From an uncultured virus (IMG/VR IMGVR_UViG_3300042289_000700) (taxonomy: Duplodnaviria; Heunggongvirae; Uroviricota; Caudoviricetes), in IMG/VR virus record IMGVR_UViG_3300042289_000700: a stretch of DNA of 20,000 nt; one strand, given 5' to 3'. Below, piece after piece: positions 3,693 through 16,321 of the stretch. The position numbers and the translations under genes were made by a program. Positions within the stretch are counted from its first letter, which is position 1. Each line of letters begins with the position of its first letter. The notes below the pieces were generated by a model. That model saw only the letters and a list, made by a program, of their open reading frames with translations, was not told the origin of the DNA and did no database searches.

Positions 3693-4565
3693 TTATTTAG
3701 TTGTTAGGTTTCTTCCATAGCTGCACCACTGACGCACCTGACAGAAGTGGAGGCAACGCGTATCCTCCCCGTCCCTTCTCTCGACGGCACCACCGATTCT
3801 TTTGGCGTGTGCAAGAGCCTCAGATTCAAGCTGATAGACCCCTCCATTGACGGCACGTTTCGCTCCTTTTTCTTTGAGGACAGCCCACGTTGTGGGTTTA
3901 GACCAACGTTCTTCCTCGGTGCAGACGGGGATGTCATCCTCCTTTTCTACCAGCTTTGCCGCGTTGTGCAAGGCGATACGAGAGCGGATGTATGCCATTG
4001 TCTCGGCCTCATGCCAAATCTGGAGTGGGATTTCTTGGATGGCGCATTTAGGATAGTCGGCCTTGAATTCGGCGTCTTTTCGTCTCCAGTCCTTCATAAC
4101 AAGAAGAATAGCAATCTTCTTAGGGTGGATTCCGTTGTGTTCGCACAGGAGCTTGTTGACGTTGGCTTGCTTTGTCCACTCAAGCTTATCATCGCTCATG
4201 GCCTTGTAGACGCTGGAGACCTTGTAGTCCCAAAGAGTTTCGGTCTCCCCGTCATAGAGGTCGATCTGTCCCCCTAGCTTAACCCCGTCGATATCAATGT
4301 AGAAACGTTGCTCACAGACGTAGCGTTCGGGATTGCGTTTCGCCACTTGCTCCAAAACGTGGTGGTTGGCTGTCCCCAACATCGTCCATACTTTCTCGGA
4401 ACAGTCCATGGTGATCTCGTTGCTGTGGCGTTTCCAGAGTTCGGAGATCTTTGGAGGTTGAGCTAATCCTGTAGTAGTGATGTCTGACTCGCCCTTGCTG
4501 TAGGTTTCCTCGCTAACGAGGTCTACGAAAGGCTGGGGTAAAGAAAATCGGTTGGTTATGATCAT
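3693..4565 (-). CDS. PD-(D/E)XK exonuclease, Cas4/RecB-like
   Basis: Motifs GTANH, CEQRF, GQID, DYK and Q-x-N-x-N. C-terminal cysteines (PVCTEEERW...RCLHFCQVRQWC) could bind Fe-S or Zn. Confidence 0.85.
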   Translation of the reverse strand: MIITNRFSLPQPFVDLVSEETYSKGESDITTTGLAQPPKISELWKRHSNEITMDCSEKVWTMLGTANHHVLEQVAKRNPERYVCEQRFYIDIDGVKLGGQIDLYDGETETLWDYKVSSVYKAMSDDKLEWTKQANVNKLLCEHNGIHPKKIAILLVMKDWRRKDAEFKADYPKCAIQEIPLQIWHEAETMAYIRSRIALHNAAKLVEKEDDIPVCTEEERWSKPTTWAVLKEKGAKRAVNGGVYQLESEALAHAKRIGGAVERRDGEDTRCLHFCQVRQWCSYGRNLTTK

Positions 4566-4853: not shown

Positions 4854-5089
4854 TATGCTGCTTTTTCTAGTTGGTTGTTGTTTGACTTCGGCGTTTTGAC
4901 GCCCAAGAGTTTACAGATGTATCGGATGTGGAAGCACTCCTTGCGGAATTGATAGCTTGGACAAGTGCAGGTAATTGGGGTTTCTCCAACGTCAACGAGG
5001 TAGAAGTCTTCTCGGTTGGTGCGTGACTGGACAAGAAATGTGAGCGGATCATGTGGCAGAACTTCGATGCCGCGTCCATAGCTAGTCAT
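4853..5089 (-). CDS. SWIM-type zinc finger protein (78 aa)
   Basis: Motif Y-x-V...CTCPSYQFRKECFHI (CxC...CxH). Likely start is ATG 5089, overlapping the upstream stop. Confidence 0.8.
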   Translation of the reverse strand: MTSYGRGIEVLPHDPLTFLVQSRTNREDFYLVDVGETPITCTCPSYQFRKECFHIRYICKLLGVKTPKSNNNQLEKAA

Positions 5090-5729
5090 TAGCCTCCTCT
5101 GGTTGCGGGGTTTTGAGAGACTCGGCCTTGCTTGCCCCATAGCCCAAATCTTCGGGAGTGTAGGGCTGGATGGGCATCTTGAAGGTGTGGCCAGAGCGGT
5201 CTGCTTGGATGAAGAGCGAGGTGGCTATGCCCTGACGATGCTCATTCGGAAGGTCTAGCTCAATAGCAATATCGTTGGCCTTCTTGACGCACAGCCTCAT
5301 CAGGTTTGCCGCCTGACAGAGGAACACCTTTACTTCGCGGTCTTTGGGTTCGGGATTCTTGACGGCCTCTCCCGTGGGCTTCTGGGGCTCGCGAGGGGTG
5401 TCATTCACCAACGTGGAGCCCTTGACCATCGCGGCTTGGATCTCCATCGTAGCAGTTCCCTGCTTGTCGTTGCCCGAAGCAATCAAGACTACGGTCTTAC
5501 CGACATACTCTTTAAAAGAGTCTTCGATATCTTTGTTTGGGATAAAATAAGTGTGGTCTACTCCGCCGACTTCGACGGTCACCAGATGGAACTTCTTTTG
5601 ATCGGCCTTGCGGACAATGACCTTGGGAACTGATTTGATTGTGACCAGCTTCGGCCCGTTCTTGACTAGGTCAGAGTGGTTAAGGCTGGGCGTCTTTTCG
5701 CGGTTTTGATTGGGTTTTTGGAATGACAT
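5082..5729 (-). CDS. Hypothetical DNA-metabolism protein (possible SSB/recombination accessory)
   Basis: Beta-rich, OB-like N-terminal half and helical C-terminal domain (RQGIATSLFIQ) with an acidic tail, close to the exonuclease. ATG 5729 is preferred because GTG 5759 lies inside a promoter spacer. Confidence 0.55.
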   Translation of the reverse strand: MSFQKPNQNREKTPSLNHSDLVKNGPKLVTIKSVPKVIVRKADQKKFHLVTVEVGGVDHTYFIPNKDIEDSFKEYVGKTVVLIASGNDKQGTATMEIQAAMVKGSTLVNDTPREPQKPTGEAVKNPEPKDREVKVFLCQAANLMRLCVKKANDIAIELDLPNEHRQGIATSLFIQADRSGHTFKMPIQPYTPEDLGYGASKAESLKTPQPEEAND

Positions 5730-5743
5730 ATAGGTTTTGTTGT

Positions 5744-5772
5744 TCTCTATCTCCGACACTCGGCTTTGTCAA
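5744..5772 (-). promoter_or_regulatory. Putative promoter TTGACA-N17-TAGAGA
   Basis: Perfect -35 at 5772-5767 and a weak -10, located just downstream of the terminator. The spacer holds CCGA-gtg-TCGG. Confidence 0.45.
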
Positions 5773-5789
5773 ACGTTCAAAGTATTTTT

Positions 5790-5832
5790 AAAAAAGGCGG
5801 GGGGCAGGAAAAACCACTAACCTACCCCCCGC
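5790..5832 (-). terminator. Rho-independent terminator
   Basis: Minus strand reads GCGGGGGGUAGG, 12-nt loop, CCUGCCCCCCGC, then C-UUUUUU. The 12-bp stem includes a U-G pair that forms only on the minus strand. Confidence 0.8.
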
Positions 5833-5880
5833 GAACTATCACACATGAAAACGAGGGACAACATATACCCTCAGACCCCG
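5790..5880 (-). ncRNA. Candidate ~85-nt phage small RNA
   Basis: Bounded by promoter 5908-5881 and terminator 5832-5790, with an internal GAGGG/CCCUC hairpin and no meaningful ORF on this strand. Confidence 0.55.
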
Positions 5881-5908
5881 AACCTACCACAATCGTTCAA
5901 TCTTGCAA
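5881..5908 (-). promoter_or_regulatory. Promoter TTGCAA-N16-(TG)TAGGTT driving the candidate sRNA
   Basis: -35 at 5908-5903 and extended -10 TGgTAGGTT ending at 5881. It shares its -10 hexamer with the divergent promoter. Confidence 0.55.
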
Positions 5909-5921
5909 GGGGAAAATGACC

Positions 5922-5950
5922 TTGCTAGGATAGGTCTTTTAGAGTAGGTT
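5922..5950 (+). promoter_or_regulatory. Promoter TTGCTA-N17-TAGGTT, predicted leaderless mRNA
   Basis: -35 at 5922-5927 and -10 at 5945-5950; ATG 5958 follows after 7 nt with no SD. An inverted repeat GACCT/AGGTC overlaps the -35. Confidence 0.6.
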
Positions 5951-5957
5951 CTCCGAA

Positions 5958-8900
5958 ATGGCAGAGCAACCACCCCTCTCTAGAATTCATGTCGTTGGCT
6001 ATTCGGCCAATGACCGCGATTTTCCGATCCTTAATCTGGTTTTAGATCCGCGTGTTGCGGGCTATCAGGTTCCCAAGGATCTTTCGGCCTGTCCCGATAA
6101 ACGCTATCCCAACCATGTATTTACGGGAGCCCAGCCGATCTCTGGGGATCAACGTGTCCGCCATGTCTGGGAGATTCTCCCCTCTCCTTATGTCCCCTTT
6201 ACCCGCTATGATGATGACCTCGGTCCTGTTCAGGGGCGGAGGCGGTCTGTTAAAAATGAGGGGCAAGTCGCAAGTCTAGCTGCTGATAAAAGAGTAACCT
6301 ACGAAGCCCGAGAAGGATCGGCTATTGTCTATACCGAACTGGAGGAGTCTTGGTCGGTTGCCACTGACGAGGATGGTAATTCCCTTTTTCCTTTTAAGGA
6401 TCGGGATTTTTATGATGCCTCACGCGGCCCCGTCCAAGAACGCCGCCAACTTTTTGTCCCCACAGGAGAGGAGGTTGGCTCTTTGGAGAACATCAACGGA
6501 GTCATCACCCAGACCAGCTACGAGCCCTACAACGAATTTCTTTCGGTCAAGATTGTCCAGACCTACAAGGTGGACGGCCCACAACTGATTGGTAAGGCCA
6601 CGGACAATGACGGCCAGCTAGTCACGGTTACCACCCAGCGCAAGGGGGCCAATGGATATATCCCTCCGAATCCAACCGCAACCAGAACGGTTGAGGTTAA
6701 CCGCGAGGACGCCGAAGCCCTAATCGAACGGACTGTCGATACCCCCGAAGTTTTTAAAGCCAACACGTTTTCTGTTGAACGCCCCGACCCCATTCCCCAG
6801 AAGTTCCGCGTAGCAGTCCCAATCCAGTCCTCACAAGAGATTGTTGAAGGAATCGCCGTTACGCCAACCCTTGAAGAGGGGGAGATCTCTAAGAGCGAAG
6901 AACAGCGTAATAAGTTTATCAAGCGGGTGTCTTCTACTTCGCGGGATCAAGCCGTTCTACCTCAAACACTTACTGGCAAAGCGACCAACAACGAAAGACA
7001 GGAGGTTACAGTTACTGAGACCTTGCAGTTCGGCAACACCGACGAAGGCCCAACCGCAACAAAGACAATAGAGTCTGAGGCATTGGGTGATGGAAACTAT
7101 GTCATTACAAAGACAGAGGTTCCCGAAGTTTTTGGAGCCGAAACCTATCGCAAGATCCGCGAAGACATTACTCCGCAAAAATTCAAAGCCGCCCAAGAGG
7201 ACCTTACCACCGAACAGAATGTTGCTGGTATTGCCGATTCAAACATTAGCCTAGCAACTGGAGAGTTCGCCAAGAGCGAACAACAGGTAAACAAATTTGT
7301 AAAACGGGTATCGACAACATCGCGAGCCATTAGTGAGGCTGTTGTTTTGGTTGAACGAGTCTTGACCAACGAGGGGCAGATAGGCACCAGAACCCTGCGA
7401 CTGCAAGTGGGAGACCAGACCTTTACCCCATCGGCAACCTTGGTGGATGCCAATGTTGAGGCTTTGGGAGACGGGCGCACAGTCAAGACGGAAGTTGTAG
7501 TGCCAAATGTGTTCACTGGGAAATCTGTAGTCAAAACCAAGGTTGACCTTACCCCTGAAAAATTCCGAGCCGCGCAGCAAGACACCACCACGGAAGAGAG
7601 CATAGAGGGGGCCGTCAATCCCGCCATCAACTTGGGAACTGGAGAATTCCGAAAATCCGAGCAGCAAGTTACAGAATTTGTTAAAAGAATTTCATCCACC
7701 ACTAGGGACATCAGTGCTTCGACGGACCTAACTGAAACAGTTATCACCAATCAAGGACAGGTGGCTACCCGCACGCTCCGTCTTTCGGCCACACCGCAAG
7801 TCATTATTCCTGACGCACTTTTGGTGGACGGATCTATCGAAGCTTTGGGTGATGGCAGGACGATCAAAACTGAAGTAAGGGTTCCAGAGATTTTTGATGA
7901 AAAATCAAATACTATTGAAGCTGTCATTACTGTCCCCGAAAGGTTTTTGGTTAACAGCCCGATTAGCAGTCAGGCAATAGTTGAAGCTGGAGACAATACT
8001 TCAGTCGAGCTTTCTGGCGGATTTATATCCCAACAGAAACAAAGGATTTCAGACTTTAAGATACGGACAATTAATAGGTCGCAAAATATTGATCCTTCGG
8101 AAATTTTAAGAGGCGCTGATTACGACGACACCCTTGATGCTCAAATTCCTTTTGAAGAATATATATCTGGTACAGTTCCTAGTGGTAAATGCGAAGTTGA
8201 TCCAATCGGTGGAGGTCGTCATCTTGTTAAAGAGTATGACACTATTGGACTTGAACAAAAATTAGATGCAATCAAATACGTTTTCCCGTCTCGCTCAACA
8301 ATCACGGGCGTCCCCCCAGTGTTGCGTAATTTCAAGGTTGAATGGGAAAAGACGGAAATAGACTCTGATTCTTCGTCTAGTTCATCTGGAGTTGGTGATG
8401 GACAAACTGGATCTGTTTCTGGATCTTCCAATTCAAGCTCTACGGCAACGGGATCTGTTACTCCGATATTTGTTATTGATTTGGAAGAGGTAAATACTTC
8501 AAATATTCCGACAACATCTTATTTCTTTTTCTTAAAATATCCAGTCACAACAGCTAATATTATAAGTAAAATTGGAGGATCTGTTCAACTTTGGCCCATT
8601 TTTAAACCCAAATCGCACATCATAACCGCAACTGGACAAAAACTTAAGGTTGATCTTGGTAGAAATATTTCATTCAATTCAAACTGGGGTGAAAACTCTT
8701 CTTCAAATTCAATATCTCTTGGTCAAACAAGGGGGATTGAAACAACAGATCAGATTTTTACAGTAAGAATTCCTCCGTGTCTTCATGGTTCATTTTCGGA
8801 TATTAACAAAGAAGAAAAACAAGAAGTTAAAGCTTCTGTTAGCGCGACAGTAAATATTAGGGGAAACGTAACCGAGGTTCCAACTATTTCATTTGATGAA

Positions 8901-10329: not shown

Positions 10330-10625
10330 CAGCACTTCGGCCTGACAAAGTTGATTGTTCTAACACATCCACTACTGCACTTAACTTTGGCTTTTTGTAG
10401 TTCCATTTTTATTCCGCGATTGCCAAGGGCATTGATGTAGTTTTCGGCGTATCCGCTTTCTTCAGCGGCCTGCTTAACCGTTTTCCATCCTTTAGCGTTC
10501 ATGGCCTCAATTGTGGTTGTTCCGTTGCTTTCACGAAACGACCGCCAAACGCTATCCCACTCTGGGACTACAATTTGAGCATTGGGGCTTTTTGTTCTGC
10601 TAGTTTTGCTATGATGGGTTGCCAT
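10326..10625 (-). CDS. Small HTH-like DNA-binding protein (~99 aa)
   Basis: WKTVKQAAEESGYAENYI resembles an excisionase/MerR-type HTH. Likely start is ATG 10625, overlapping the phosphoesterase 3' end. Its stop overlaps the convergent stop at 10329. Confidence 0.55.
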   Translation of the reverse strand: MATHHSKTSRTKSPNAQIVVPEWDSVWRSFRESNGTTTIEAMNAKGWKTVKQAAEESGYAENYINALGNRGIKMELQKAKVKCSSGCVRTINFVRPKCC

Positions 10626-11353
10626 GTGTAGGTTCCTTTGTTGACGGTAAAGATGACGAATCCAAAGTCCACTAATCCCGTGCATCGGCGGGCTCCGTAG
10701 CGGCTCCCGAATCCCTGAAGGGCTGGGGTGGTCATGGCCAGCCAGTCGGGGCCTCCCGCATAGTTGTGGTAGTGGACATGGCTTCGGATGAAGATGTCGG
10801 CCTTGGGCTGTAGCTCCCTTTCGGCCCACATGATGTTCCACATGCGATCTCTGGCCACCGCTGTATGCCGCCCATGGGGGAGGTTGCTTGATCCTGCTGG
10901 GTGGTGTTTGAGGTCGAAAATAACGTCTTCAACGTTGACCCATTCATGCTCTCCAATTCGGGCATCCACCCGCTGGGCCACGTTGTTTTCCCAATCCTCC
11001 TCATTTCCCGTATGGTAGGGAGTGCCTCTTGTGATAACAATCTTGCAATTCTTTGCTTTCGGGATTTCGCGGATAAGCTTAACGGCCATATCACACTGCT
11101 CCTCCATGTCGGTGGTTATAAGCTCCGTGCCGCCGCTTTTGGCACCTCGCCCGTCCACCAGATCTCCGTTGAGGAAAATGATGTCGTAGGGGCCATTACG
11201 CGCAATCTGGAGGGCATACCAGTTGTAGTAGGCTCTGTTAGCCGTCACCCATTCAGCCCGCTCTTTGACGGGTTGTTCTGGGAGGTAGCCCTTGGGGGTT
11301 AGGCCAACTTTGTGGCCGCAGTGGAAGTCCGAAAGGACCGCTATTTTTTTCAT
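10568..11353 (-). CDS. Calcineurin-like metallophosphoesterase
   Basis: Metal-binding motifs SDFH, NGDLVDG, GTPYH (variant of GNH), KHH and SHVH in canonical order. Confidence 0.85.
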   Translation of the reverse strand: MKKIAVLSDFHCGHKVGLTPKGYLPEQPVKERAEWVTANRAYYNWYALQIARNGPYDIIFLNGDLVDGRGAKSGGTELITTDMEEQCDMAVKLIREIPKAKNCKIVITRGTPYHTGNEEDWENNVAQRVDARIGEHEWVNVEDVIFDLKHHPAGSSNLPHGRHTAVARDRMWNIMWAERELQPKADIFIRSHVHYHNYAGGPDWLAMTTPALQGFGSRYGARRCTGLVDFGFVIFTVNKGTYTWQPIIAKLAEQKAPMLKL

Positions 11354-11357
11354 AAGA

Positions 11358-11579
11358 TTAGCTAAAATTTACATTTCGCTCGTTGACCATCTCCCACAGA
11401 AGCTGTCGAATTTCTTCAACAGTAGTGCTGTCCCAATTGGGATGAGAATCATAGCGGAGATGATTGCGAAGCTCATCGCTAAGATCGGTAATGATGCTAT
11501 GAAGATCGACTGCCTTACAAGCCATCTCAAACTCGACTTGTTCTTCTGGCAGGTTGAAGGATAGTGTGCCATTGGCCAT
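11358..11579 (-). CDS. Hypothetical protein (73 aa)
   Basis: Starts TLSFNLPEE and has an A/C-rich leader; lies within the operon. Confidence 0.75.
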   Translation of the reverse strand: MANGTLSFNLPEEQVEFEMACKAVDLHSIITDLSDELRNHLRYDSHPNWDSTTVEEIRQLLWEMVNERNVNFS

Positions 11580-11883: not shown

Positions 11884-12030
11884 TTAGTCTTGGGTTTCTC
11901 CGCAGGTTTTGCATCTGAGGATATGGACTACCCCATGATCAATCCGTTCAATCTTTTCCGATCCACAGTAGAAACAGGTCTTGGATTGCGGCTTGCGGTA
12001 AACCTTTTTCTTCTTTTTTTCTTCGCTCAT
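11884..12030 (-). CDS. Small Zn-ribbon protein (48 aa)
   Basis: MSEEKKKKK...CFYC...CKTC. ATG 12030 overlaps the endolysin stop (ATGA). Confidence 0.7.
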   Translation of the reverse strand: MSEEKKKKKVYRKPQSKTCFYCGSEKIERIDHGVVHILRCKTCGETQD

Positions 12031-12707
12031 TTTTTGACTGTTGATGGGTTGATTCGCACAAAGTTGCGTACTAGCGAGGCAGACCGTGTTTTGAGCCACA
12101 CCCCGTCCCCAGACTTGCTGTCCCGCGTCCCCCTGCCGTTTGTGTTGCCCTCGACACATTGGAACCTTCCGTTGGGAAGGACCTTGGTCACAATCCCGAT
12201 ATGGGAGAAGTCAAAAATAACAAAGTCCCCAACATGGGGCTTGGCCTTGTTAGAAAGAACCTTGGCCGTAGCTGGTCTTTCTTTAGCCCAAGAGATATAG
12301 CCAAACGCCGCCGCTGTCCTCGGTCTCCACTTCTCAGGGATCATTACCTTGAGCCCCAACCACTCAACATTTTCGGGGTCTTTGAGCCACTCGCGAACTA
12401 CCCATGAAGTCAGGGCGGCACACCATGGCCAAGAAGCGGGCTTGAGGTTGGTGGCGGCTTGATACTTCCGCACCTGTGGACCGTTGTTGTTGCCCCCCAC
12501 TTCTTTGACTCCCACTTGGGACAGGGCAATCTTGGCTAGGTTCTCAAGAGCCTTGGGAGTCTTCTGTTTCGGGGTTTCCCTCTTCTTTTCGACGGGCAAC
12601 TCTGGCTTTGAGTTCTCCTTGGATTCGGATGGCAAGCTCGGCAAGGACGGCGCTTGGCCACCTTCTGATTCTATCCCAAGTAGTTTCTGGATTAACTGCC
12701 AAATCAT
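12027..12707 (-). CDS. CHAP-domain endolysin (peptidoglycan amidase/endopeptidase)
   Basis: Motifs QVGVKE..NNG, PWCAA (catalytic Cys), GDFVIF, SHIGIV (His) and VEGNT. N-terminal amphipathic helix followed by a linker. Confidence 0.9.
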   Translation of the reverse strand: MIWQLIQKLLGIESEGGQAPSLPSLPSESKENSKPELPVEKKRETPKQKTPKALENLAKIALSQVGVKEVGGNNNGPQVRKYQAATNLKPASWPWCAALTSWVVREWLKDPENVEWLGLKVMIPEKWRPRTAAAFGYISWAKERPATAKVLSNKAKPHVGDFVIFDFSHIGIVTKVLPNGRFQCVEGNTNGRGTRDSKSGDGVWLKTRSASLVRNFVRINPSTVKK

Positions 12708-14863: not shown

Positions 14864-16123
14864 TTAGGGAACCAAGTAGCCATATCCGCTACCGCTGGCG
14901 CAAGGAACAAGGTCGTTCGCAAGGCTGCAACGGAGGTGGATAATGTAGTATCCCCACTCAGGGAAGATCTGCTTGACGGCACAGGCCATCTTCGCCCGCC
15001 AGTAACCCGAGTTCTTGTCAGGATTGCACTGTTTATCATACTCGTTGATCCAGCGGAAATCTCCGCGATAGTTCTGAGCATCATAGACCAGCTTGCCGAC
15101 TTTGAGGTTAGGATTCGGGACGAGCCACTCCAGCGCCTTCGGATGGAAGATAACCGTGGAGGTGTACTTCGCATTCTTGTAGGCGGGGTTGACGATAGCT
15201 TTGGTGCCTTTGAAGGCCGAATCCGTGATATACGGAGGGACTTCGACAAGGGTGCCGCCAGCGCCATCGTTGAAGCGTTTCGGGAACGGACGGCTGTGGA
15301 ACACATAACCAGCGTAGCTCTTCTTGGGAAGAAGCATCTGGCCATTGGTGCCCAACAGATCGTTCACGCGATCACTCCAGCGGATGTCCTGACGGATGTC
15401 CTCGTTGATCTTGATCATCTGTTCGATGGTGGCACGATCCGACATCACGTTGAAGACGGGAGCGCCGTCATCGGTGACCGCATCGCCGTCATCTCCAGCG
15501 TTGTCCGAGTAGAGGCTGTCGTAGATCTGACGCAGAACGCCAGTCGTGAGAACGCTCGTCGGGGCCGTGAGACCAGTGATCGTGGCATTGTCACCACTAA
15601 AGGTGACGCCAGTTCCAATCTGGGTGTCAAAGCCAGCTTCGACGCTCAAGATATTGACGTTGGACAGATAGTCGTTGTCGTAACGCTTAATCCACTCGAC
15701 GTTGACGTTGTCGGCCAAGATCTTGATGTAGTTGTTGACATCATCAATCGGGAAAGCCGAAGTACGAACGTCTTCCAAGCAGATCCAATCCGACTCCACA
15801 GCCTGATGGCGGAGCGAGAAGTTTTTCTGGTCGAAGGCGTAGCCGACTTTCTTGACGGGAGCCAAGCAGGAGTTGTCCTGACCAGCTTCGCCAGTGACAC
15901 CGATGGACTCCCAACCACTGCCAGAGGCGATGGTACGGCGAGCAATAGTGTTGGTGATCGTTTTGCCCATGTTGTCGGGGAAGGCCGACTGGGTAACAAG
16001 ACGAAGGTAGGGATCTTTATAAAGACCCAAGCGATGGGTGCCAAGGGCAATACGTCCAGTCTCTCTCTGGAAATTGTCGTTAATGCTCTCGCAAGTAACT
16101 GAAGCAGCGTTAGGTGCTGACAT
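14864..16123 (-). CDS. Major capsid protein
   Basis: 419 aa, located after portal and scaffold, with strongly biased codons, its own promoter and a downstream hairpin. Size and composition are compatible with an HK97-type fold. Confidence 0.8.
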   Translation of the reverse strand: MSAPNAASVTCESINDNFQRETGRIALGTHRLGLYKDPYLRLVTQSAFPDNMGKTITNTIARRTIASGSGWESIGVTGEAGQDNSCLAPVKKVGYAFDQKNFSLRHQAVESDWICLEDVRTSAFPIDDVNNYIKILADNVNVEWIKRYDNDYLSNVNILSVEAGFDTQIGTGVTFSGDNATITGLTAPTSVLTTGVLRQIYDSLYSDNAGDDGDAVTDDGAPVFNVMSDRATIEQMIKINEDIRQDIRWSDRVNDLLGTNGQMLLPKKSYAGYVFHSRPFPKRFNDGAGGTLVEVPPYITDSAFKGTKAIVNPAYKNAKYTSTVIFHPKALEWLVPNPNLKVGKLVYDAQNYRGDFRWINEYDKQCNPDKNSGYWRAKMACAVKQIFPEWGYYIIHLRCSLANDLVPCASGSGYGYLVP

Positions 16124-16292: not shown

Positions 16293-16321
16293 AAACTATT
16301 ACATTTGCGTTAAATTGTCAA
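16293..16321 (-). promoter_or_regulatory. Promoter TTGACA-N17-TAGTTT for the capsid operon
   Basis: -35 at 16321-16316 and -10 at 16298-16293. An inverted repeat CGCAAA-N8-TTTGCG (16290-16309) overlaps the -10. Confidence 0.75.

Follow-up and report, generated by a model that had tools for sequence, protein, structure and literature searches.

A conserved, self-contained small-RNA transcription unit predicted in a lineage of uncultivated lake phages

Phages are known to encode several kinds of small RNA, and in this paper we compare the described kinds with a short intergenic element that we predict to encode an RNA of about 85-88 nt. The element lies at positions 5790-5876, on the minus strand, of a 20,000-nt stretch of DNA from an uncultured virus of the Caudoviricetes (IMG/VR record IMGVR_UViG_3300042289_000700); we refer to this whole stretch as the window. 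The lineage to which the window belongs is one of abundant, uncultivated lake phages. To our knowledge, hardly any small RNA is known from virulent, uncultivated phages, and the described cases come mostly from temperate enterobacterial phages.

Among the described systems, the trans-acting small RNAs (sRNAs) include PreS of lambda (~88 nt, which targets the host dnaN) and VpdS of phage VP882 (PMC12197685; bioRxiv 10.1101/2024.10.31.621285). They share with the lake-phage element a small, independently transcribed RNA (here predicted), a single-stranded stretch and an intrinsic terminator, and for the lake phage, too, action on host mRNA in the lytic cycle is proposed. Unlike them, the lake-phage RNA has no sequence or Rfam relation to either, and its candidate seed is an unusual, near-pure G/U run; its phage has no cultured relative by tblastn and no integrase that we could see, and the host is probably poor in Shine-Dalgarno (SD) motifs.

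A second group consists of cis-antisense RNAs, such as the sar RNA of P22, which blocks initiation of translation of ant, and the OOP RNA of lambda, which is antisense to cII (PMC12197685). The lake-phage element falls in the same size class of ~70-90 nt and has, by prediction, its own promoter and terminator; sar, moreover, also acts at a start region. Whereas sar and OOP overlap a real gene on the opposite strand, the open reading frame (ORF) opposite the lake-phage RNA is not conserved, and we find no phage gene with a conserved complementary site. That is, the locus shows neither the conserved opposite-strand gene nor the toxin ORF expected of a cis-antisense RNA or a type I toxin-antitoxin system.

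The PR'-tR' region of lambda is laid out as a promoter and a short terminated transcript upstream of the late operon. Lambda 6S RNA and StxS (74 nt) are promoter-proximal terminated transcripts of lambdoid late operons, and the product StxS can also act in trans (PMC12197685). The resemblance lies in the order of promoter, short RNA and strong terminator directly upstream of an operon. In contrast to these cases, the lake-phage locus has a separate promoter-like motif after the terminator, we recognise no Q-like antiterminator, and the operon is one of replication and recombination rather than a late operon.

Finally, autoregulatory leaders and candidate structured RNAs have been described upstream of phage genes for single-strand-binding proteins (SSBs), notably gp32 (PMC10690425, section 2.6). 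Like them, the lake-phage RNA combines structured and unstructured parts and directly precedes an SSB-like gene. Unlike those leaders, it ends in a terminator of its own, which together with a promoter-like motif cuts it off from the gene, and it consists of two simple hairpins with no pseudoknot. The conserved linker described below is absent from the six supplementary files of PMC10690425 that were searched, three further files lying outside the search.

A search of the whole window against Rfam release 15 gives no match at the gathering thresholds; the best sub-threshold matches (window 5740-5960; relative L017, 2800-3000) score 16-17 bits against thresholds of 54-59. Likewise, ARAGORN finds nothing. 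It is thus well supported that the RNA belongs to no described family, and constitutes a new one, while its design resembles that of known phage sRNAs.

The transcription unit and its conservation

The unit lies within the 228 nt that separate two divergent genes, of which the first encodes a 215-aa protein (minus strand, ATG at 5729) and the second a 1033-aa protein (plus strand, ATG at 5958). An earlier note on this DNA, made from the letters alone, had described a promoter, hairpins, a linker and a terminator here, and all of these parts are found at this position on the minus strand:

5904-5909, minus strand: -35 element CTTGCA, read from the sequence (the TTGCAA of the earlier note is 5908-5903)
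5881-5889, minus strand: extended -10 element TGgTAGGTT (family consensus TGnTAnnTT), read from the sequence, after a 17-nt spacer from CTTGCA
5790-5876, minus strand: predicted small RNA of ~85-88 nt, its 5' end placed at the onset of conservation and its 3' end at the U-tract
5853-5872, minus strand: stem-loop 1 from the predicted fold, GAGGG/CCCUC with loop UAUAUGUUGU
5833-5852, minus strand: linker GUUUUCAUGUGUGAUAGUUC, 20 nt, single-stranded in the predicted fold and conserved, a candidate seed or binding site
5797-5832, minus strand: terminator hairpin from the predicted fold, GCGGGGGGUAGG/CCUGCCCCCCGC, a 12-bp G+C-rich stem with loop UUAGUGGUUUUU
5790-5795, minus strand: U-tract U6, preceded by C5796

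The fold of 5885-5780 on the minus strand has a predicted energy of -36.9 kcal/mol, compared with -27.2 +/- 3.3 for shuffled sequences (z -3.0), and 2 of 200 shuffles fold as well. Since a search of the plus strand finds no U-run after the terminator hairpin, termination is predicted to be one-directional.

Relatives were collected by searching with the 215-aa protein, the IMG/VR loci so obtained having 46-100% protein identity to that of the window. The unit is present in all 64 of the IMG/VR loci, and in all 31 metagenome loci that have at least 150 nt of upstream DNA (43 metagenome loci were returned). It always occupies the same syntenic place, between the divergent large gene and the gene for the 215-aa protein, which has a predicted, SSB-like OB fold. 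Of the IMG/VR loci, 59 were detected by simple anchors, L054, L058 and L059 as variants, L051 by a covariance model, and L013 by reading. The covariance model, built from 23 main-clade variants and searched over 580 kb, gives exactly one match per genome, always at the syntenic locus; its only match in the window is 5790-5879 on the minus strand (22.1 bits, E 0.1 over 580 kb), and it misses the variants of L011, L014 and L057 at E <=1. In L013 and L051 a gene for an HNH endonuclease has been inserted behind the unit, which nevertheless remains whole.

We next consider how conservation is distributed along the unit. Pairwise identities within the 23 main-clade variants are as follows:

-35 element: 100%
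promoter spacer, always 17 nt: 69%
-10 element: 87%
the 6-7 nt after the -10 element: 64%
stem-loop 1: 93%
linker: 93%
terminator: 94%
third codon positions of the next gene, which serve as a neutral yardstick: 66%

Across 42 aligned variants from all clades, the TTGCA of the -35 element is invariant, and T21, G22, T24, A25, T28 and T29 (TG-n-TA-nn-TT) are each conserved in at least 90%. This pattern suggests a promoter followed by a selected RNA that would start about 6-7 nt past the -10 element, near 5876. At the other end of the unit, a T-run stands behind the hairpin in 92 of the 95 parsed loci; L061 and L210 carry CCUUCCUUC instead, and L051 was missed owing to the coordinates used. Judged by its sequence, then, the locus has both the promoter and the intrinsic terminator of its own that are expected of a trans-acting base-pairing sRNA. 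Because the RNA is 93-94% identical, compared with 55-59% between clades for the neighbouring protein, we argue that its function is an important one.

The hairpins covary. In an alignment of 45 covariance-model matches (39 distinct), fitted to the model, 98% of cells are paired, and changes on both sides are seen in 17 of 18 pairs. For helix 1 the figures are 6 of 7 pairs changed on both sides, with 94.9% of cells paired, and for helix 2, the terminator, 11 of 11 pairs and 99.8% of cells. None of 500 shuffles reaches any of five measures of covariation, and when the partners are slid by 1-3 columns only 51-63% of cells pair. The raw sequences agree with this result, in that the stems change by compensation between clades. 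For example, stem 1 reads GGAAGGC/GUCUUCC in the main clade, GGAGGGC/GUCCUCC in L243, GGAGGGC/GCCUUCC in L052 and GAGGG/CCCUC in the clade of the window. The terminator stems are wholly different in L016, L021, L055 and L060, and stem 1 is missing from L016, L021, L055, L058, L244 and L245. The predicted stability of the terminators ranges from -20 to -28 kcal/mol.

The constant feature of the whole family is the unpaired stretch before the terminator, which mostly consists of a U-rich part, then CAUG, then (UG)n. Counted over 52 distinct variants, its motifs occur as follows:

AUG: 52 of 52 variants
(UG)3: 48 of 52
CAU within the linker: 47 of 52 (the only CAU of L046 sits in stem-loop 1)
CAUG: 39 of 52

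The earlier note had asked whether relatives keep the CAU of the linker; it is lost in 5 of the 52 (L021, L023, L045, L046 and L230). The exposure of the linker that it had described is borne out by prediction, since the core of the linker has a mean unpaired probability of 0.81, compared with 0.44 for the whole RNA, and exceeds 0.5 in all 40 variants scored (two variants were not captured by the pattern). A conserved and accessible single-stranded seed is therefore present by these measures: identity in the linker is 93% against neutral values of 64-69%, and all 52 variants have AUG and a G/U run. In the lineages without stem 1 the entire 5' part is almost pure G/U besides the CA of CAUG (that of L058, for example, is 93% G+U), and in L055 the UG run is located in a hairpin loop.

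The suggestion that the RNA carries several seeds, on the other hand, does not extend to the family, in which only the linker is conserved. The loop of stem 1 varies by clade (UAUAUGUUGU versus AUUC), and conservation of the terminator loop UUAGUGGUUUUU is confined to the super-clade of the window, the main clade having CUAAAAA. The 8-nt match that had been noted between this terminator loop and AAAACCAC, before the gene at 11579, is indeed there; it can be compared with one close relative only, whose leader is nearly identical.

Two considerations weigh against reading the locus as a transcription unit. A simple consensus scan of the window flags neither the promoter nor the terminator, because the -10 element has three of six consensus letters and the terminator loop exceeds the 8-nt limit of the scan; the case from the window alone is therefore weak, the original description being accurate without being compelling. 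In addition, the covariation alignment was fitted to the structure, which favours pairing. Taking the conserved promoter pattern, the covarying stems and the presence of the unit in all relatives examined together, we conclude that the self-contained unit proposed in the earlier note very probably is an independently transcribed small RNA under selection. It offers a clean example of how comparative data by themselves can reveal a promoter, a transcript start and an RNA body.

Proposed action and its alternatives

The reading that we favour, at a little under an even chance, is that the RNA is a trans-acting antisense RNA that works through its G/U-rich linker. On such a reading, a host-type promoter (CTTGCA, 17 nt, TGnTAnnTT), placed back to back with that of the divergent large gene, would drive a short transcript, and this transcript would stop at the strong, one-directional intrinsic terminator, just before the promoter-like motif that belongs to the OB-fold/exonuclease operon. 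The RNA would comprise, in order, usually a 5' hairpin, an unpaired G/U-rich stretch with core UUUUCAUGUGUG, and the terminator hairpin. Pairing of the open stretch with a C/A-rich RNA segment (CACACAUGAAAA or similar), probably in the translation start region of a host mRNA, would then block access of the ribosome.

The premise that start regions in this system make little use of SD pairing appears reasonable, since SD-like motifs precede 3 of 26 genes in the window and 15-24% of genes in four complete relatives, and G is depleted immediately upstream of start codons. If a G/U-rich strand of this kind does pair with SD-less start regions, it would represent a new route of host takeover, as well as a natural tool for studies of SD-independent initiation. 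A bolder form of the proposal, which we regard as improbable, is that a near-pure G/U strand with a central CAU pairs promiscuously with the C/A-rich, G-poor leaders and the AUG of many SD-independent host mRNAs, shutting off or re-programming host translation early in infection. The mRNAs of secreted MKT... proteins would be example targets, and G:U wobble would extend the reach of such a strand beyond that of ordinary seeds.

Several results count against an antisense action. The earlier note had envisaged silencing at start codons of the phage as well as of the host, and had named a lack of enrichment over shuffled controls as evidence to the contrary; for the phage this is what we observe, duplex energies at start regions being equal to those at internal sites and those of shuffled seeds. 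In G002 the start energy is -11.12, compared with -11.16 for internal sites and -11.12 +/- 0.58 for shuffled seeds, and in the window it is -8.51, compared with -8.77 and -9.30 +/- 0.70. Over four genomes and the window, a comparison of starts with internal, antisense and shuffled sites shows no consistent difference (G004 is slightly better, p 0.014, and G006 worse). Scoring of CAU:AUG in register gives no excess, either over 500 shuffled flanks or over internal ATGs, with 0 of 46 window starts above threshold, and the start regions of the flanking genes are unremarkable (z -0.8 to +2.0). Gene starts in these target tests come from a crude longest-ORF caller, which blurs them.

Besides the gene itself, no complementary site of at least 11 nt is common to three complete genomes, and a scan of three genomes for complementary runs of at least 9 nt finds none conserved. 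We thus find no conserved or enriched complementary target among the phage genes. What is more, the extreme conservation of the seed across phages with presumably different hosts would demand an equally conserved target. As to transcripts, no RNA sequencing run was found to contain the stretch, while 19 lake-water DNA runs contain at least half its words. One run marked 'RNA?', which is probably DNA, gave patchy contigs and three metatranscriptome runs gave nothing, results that are uninformative on expression.

Two individual candidates for a phage target were considered and rejected. One, a 15/16 match at a small G002 gene (~30029), is not preserved in G004. The other is a pair of CCACACAU boxes that precede a DUF932 gene in G002 and G005; G004 has them only in degraded form, and G006 lacks them.

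The resemblance of the linker's complement to a start region holds in part. The 17-mer of the main-clade linker occurs exactly 50 times in 185,579 species genomes, and at 31 of the 50 matches the ATG of the complement heads an ORF that is open for at least 40 codons; 17 of the 50 also have an in-frame stop at most 25 codons upstream, and many of the ORFs start with MKT followed by a signal peptide. The likeness to bacterial start regions therefore stands. The 17-mer is not enriched over chance, however, the expectation under uniform-model arithmetic being ~70 occurrences, and this too tells against the proposal.

The elements that flank the unit bear on the remaining explanations:

5755-5780, minus strand: promoter-like motif TTGAAC-N17-GTC, before the 215-aa gene and outside the RNA
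5922-5950, plus strand: divergent promoter motif TTGCTA-17-TAGGTT, before the 1033-aa gene
5082-5729, minus strand: 215-aa gene, whose product is predicted by AlphaFold (pLDDT 71.5) to have an N-terminal, SSB-like OB fold and a two-helix C-terminal part

Both promoters between which the unit had been said to be packed are thus present as motifs, and the divergent one is kept in relatives as TTGCCG-17-TAAGTT. The motif TTGAAC-N17-GTC stands behind the terminator in every clade. It has two exact copies in the window, the second at 11926-11951 on the minus strand, before a gene starting at 11914, and the ~50-kb relatives G007-G011 have 4-10 copies each, versus 0-2 for the reversed control. It precedes operons on both strands, typically ~25-45 nt before start codons. 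The motif looks like a phage-specific class of promoter, and its shape recalls what we take to be the form of ECF-sigma promoters; neither a sigma factor nor an RNA polymerase is recognised by Pfam and PHROGs. Should the motif be a promoter, it would free the operon from the promoter of the small RNA, and a separate RNA product would therefore be favoured.

This last point bears on the possibility, unlikely in our judgement, that the unit is a leader or attenuator acting in cis. Here the promoter would feed the OB-fold/exonuclease operon through a regulated terminator, the short RNA would be a terminated by-product, like the PR'-tR' transcript of lambda, and binding of the hairpin and linker by a factor from phage or host would allow read-through; in a variant, the SSB-like product would itself regulate its operon by binding the open G/U-rich stretch, much as gp32 of T4 acts on its leader. 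We keep such a role as a rival because the next gene encodes an OB fold resembling those of single-strand-binding proteins and because structured RNAs directly upstream of phage gp32 genes have been described (PMC10690425, section 2.6). In 62 of the 64 IMG/VR loci the unit stands ~60 nt upstream of the operon's first gene, in the same direction (in L013 and L051 the HNH gene comes first), and two variants, L061 and L210, have a poor U-tract. The combination of a variable hairpin with a conserved linear motif also resembles, as we understand them, the nut sites of lambda. Yet the promoter-like motif recurs between terminator and gene in all clades, the terminator is very stable over the range of energies given above, and no alternative, anti-terminator pairing recurs in the folds. 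Nor do Pfam and PHROGs show any antiterminator-like protein among the 50-51 proteins of a complete relative, most of which are without any family, and the assignment of the next gene as an SSB is itself modest (Z 7.3; Foldseek E 0.01).

Repeats of UG are known, from eukaryotic work, to be bound by RRM proteins. It is accordingly conceivable, though we think it quite unlikely, that the U-rich/(UG)n stretch is a decoy that titrates a protein, either an RRM-type or other chaperone of the host or the OB-fold protein of the phage, whose gene is adjacent. The conserved G/U run is of low complexity, and both its length and its register vary, from (UG)2 to (UG)7, with insertions and with split motifs in L060 and L244. 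A protein that recognises a motif would tolerate such variation more easily than would a fixed antisense register, and the negative outcome of the searches for a phage RNA target points in the same direction. The same data fit a flexible seed, however, and the protein partner is putative.

We regard it as very improbable that there is no functional RNA at all, and that the terminator does no more than shield the operon from the region of the divergent promoter, or that the site acts at the level of DNA, as a replication origin or a protein-binding site. The position between divergent operons, adjoining genes for replication and recombination, would suit such a role, as would the inverted repeat formed by the two -35 elements. 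But an insulator has no need of a conserved promoter directed towards it, or of an unpaired linker, 93% conserved, that is flanked by compensating hairpins, and the GC skew has no inflection at the locus.

The last alternative, that the conserved element is a small plus-strand protein gene (the 24-aa ORF at 5845-5919, MKTRDN...) or an ORF upstream of the 1033-aa gene, with the hairpins incidental, is scarcely credible: although CACACAUGAAAAC resembles a good start region, such 17-mers sit at real gene starts elsewhere and several small phage genes begin with AUGAAAAC, the ORF ranges from 3 to 45 codons across 31 distinct versions, many of which stop at 10-18 codons (a comparison that left out 16 loci, the window clade among them), its sequence past the hairpin-encoded residues is unrelated between clades and crosses a hypervariable spacer, the 24-aa version of the window and the 31-aa version of L010 diverge after ~8 residues, its ATG is destroyed in L023, L045 and L046, no conserved plus-strand promoter lies upstream, and the covarying stems and one-directional U-tract fit the minus strand. 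The earlier note had singled out conservation of this ORF as an argument against the RNA, and this ORF is not what is conserved at the locus.

A mini-ORF on the sense strand, starting from the conserved AUG, was also considered and rejected, its frame and length shifting with the lengths of (UG)n and of the U-tract; L060, for example, reads AUG-UAG. An AUG is, moreover, expected wherever an A falls in a UG run.

Possible hosts, neighbouring genes and other motifs

Returning to the trans-acting antisense reading, the 50 matches to the linker 17-mer give a hint of possible hosts. Twelve of them fall in Verrucomicrobiota, and five of these are one orthologous gene of Chthoniobacterales with a perfect 17-nt match. 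In these metagenome-assembled genomes of Chthoniobacterales/Spartobacteria (L089, L097, L103, L116 and L136), it is the start of a gene for a signal-peptide protein (MKTLIKAGAMLALIAGLGLA...) that complements the main-clade linker. With 185,579 genomes searched, such a match may have arisen by chance. In Chthoniobacterales the frequency of the 13-mer is that expected by chance, with 8 matches in 81 genomes versus 1 for the reversed control, and the 10-mer has ~93 matches in 41 genomes of Verrucomicrobiota (~2 per genome) versus 41 for the control. We therefore treat the matches in Verrucomicrobiota as a lead only, and not as an assignment of the host.

Other searches for relatives lead back to viruses or find nothing. 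The 215-aa protein has no relative in the 185,579 species genomes; tblastn with the terminase and the 215-aa protein finds no match in 50,697 phage records, where blastn is also empty; and an atlas search with DnaB returns viral clusters only.

The window itself is phage DNA, encoding a PD-(D/E)XK-type exonuclease (3693-4565), a CHAP endolysin (12027-12707), a SWIM finger protein and a metallophosphatase. The complete relatives, three of which have direct terminal repeats, measure 66.6-72.8 kb and encode a terminase, tail proteins, a holin, DnaB, DnaG and many HNH endonucleases.

The 215-aa protein has no sequence match in Pfam, PHROG or the PDB. Its predicted structure consists of the N-terminal OB fold, a disordered linker, two long helices and an acidic end. 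Foldseek relates it to PrgE and to SSBs at E ~0.01, and VIA-align to baculovirus LEF-3 (Z 7.3) and to RPA, Rim1 and the Pf3 SSB (Z 5-6). These scores for a predicted model are modest, being below the level that would exclude a merely common fold. Together with the downstream SWIM protein and the exonuclease, the 215-aa protein may form a recombination module. In G002, the operon begun by the OB-fold gene ends in a single ORF of ~3077 aa (15032-24265, plus strand), the first 1656 residues of which are without a Pfam match.

With respect to the divergent promoters, the -35 element CTTGCA of the small RNA is one arm of an inverted repeat, GCAAG...CTTGC, common to it and to the divergent promoter. 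At window 5905-5925 the two divergent -35 elements form the arms of GCAAG-N10-11-CTTGC. The mRNA of the 1033-aa gene may be leaderless or nearly so, since its ATG is only 7 nt past the -10 element. On the other side of the unit, a sequence TTGACA-17-TAGAGA at 5772-5744 (minus strand) overlaps the TTGAAC-N17-GTC motif.

Other conserved promoter-like elements occur away from the unit. A sigma-70-like promoter, TTGACA-17-TAGTTT, with a leader hairpin (CUCAAGACUUGAG), is strongly conserved at window 16293-16321 (minus strand), G002 66884 (plus) and G005 54786 (plus). It precedes a 419-aa gene (14864-16123) that comes behind a scaffold-like 437-aa gene and perhaps encodes the capsid. A further promoter-like sequence, TTGCTATGATGGGTTGCCATGTGTAGGTT, is conserved inside the metallophosphatase gene, on the opposite strand, at window 10606-10634 (plus), G002 1124 (minus) and G005 60785 (minus); its conservation may simply reflect that of the protein.

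Genes beginning with AUGAAAAC (MKT...), of 58-81 aa, form a cluster in three relatives, at ~29.5-30.1 kb of G002, ~18.4-20.3 kb of G005 and ~18.9-19.7 kb of G004, all on the minus strand. In G002 and G005 one module of promoter, leader and MKTKIQ is conserved in DNA, while the proteins behind it differ.

Finally, some relatives show how the locus has been rearranged. The HNH insertions lie between the unit and the 215-aa gene, at 2139-2996 in L013 and 2355-2939 in L051. In L013 the insert includes the promoter motif of the 215-aa gene together with its first ~10 codons, and the displaced gene possesses a new copy of that motif; the pattern in these two loci is the footprint of a homing endonuclease. 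In L061 and L062, the small RNA and leader are almost identical to those of the window, yet the 215-aa protein is only 47-48% identical, which is mosaicism with a breakpoint at the start of the gene.

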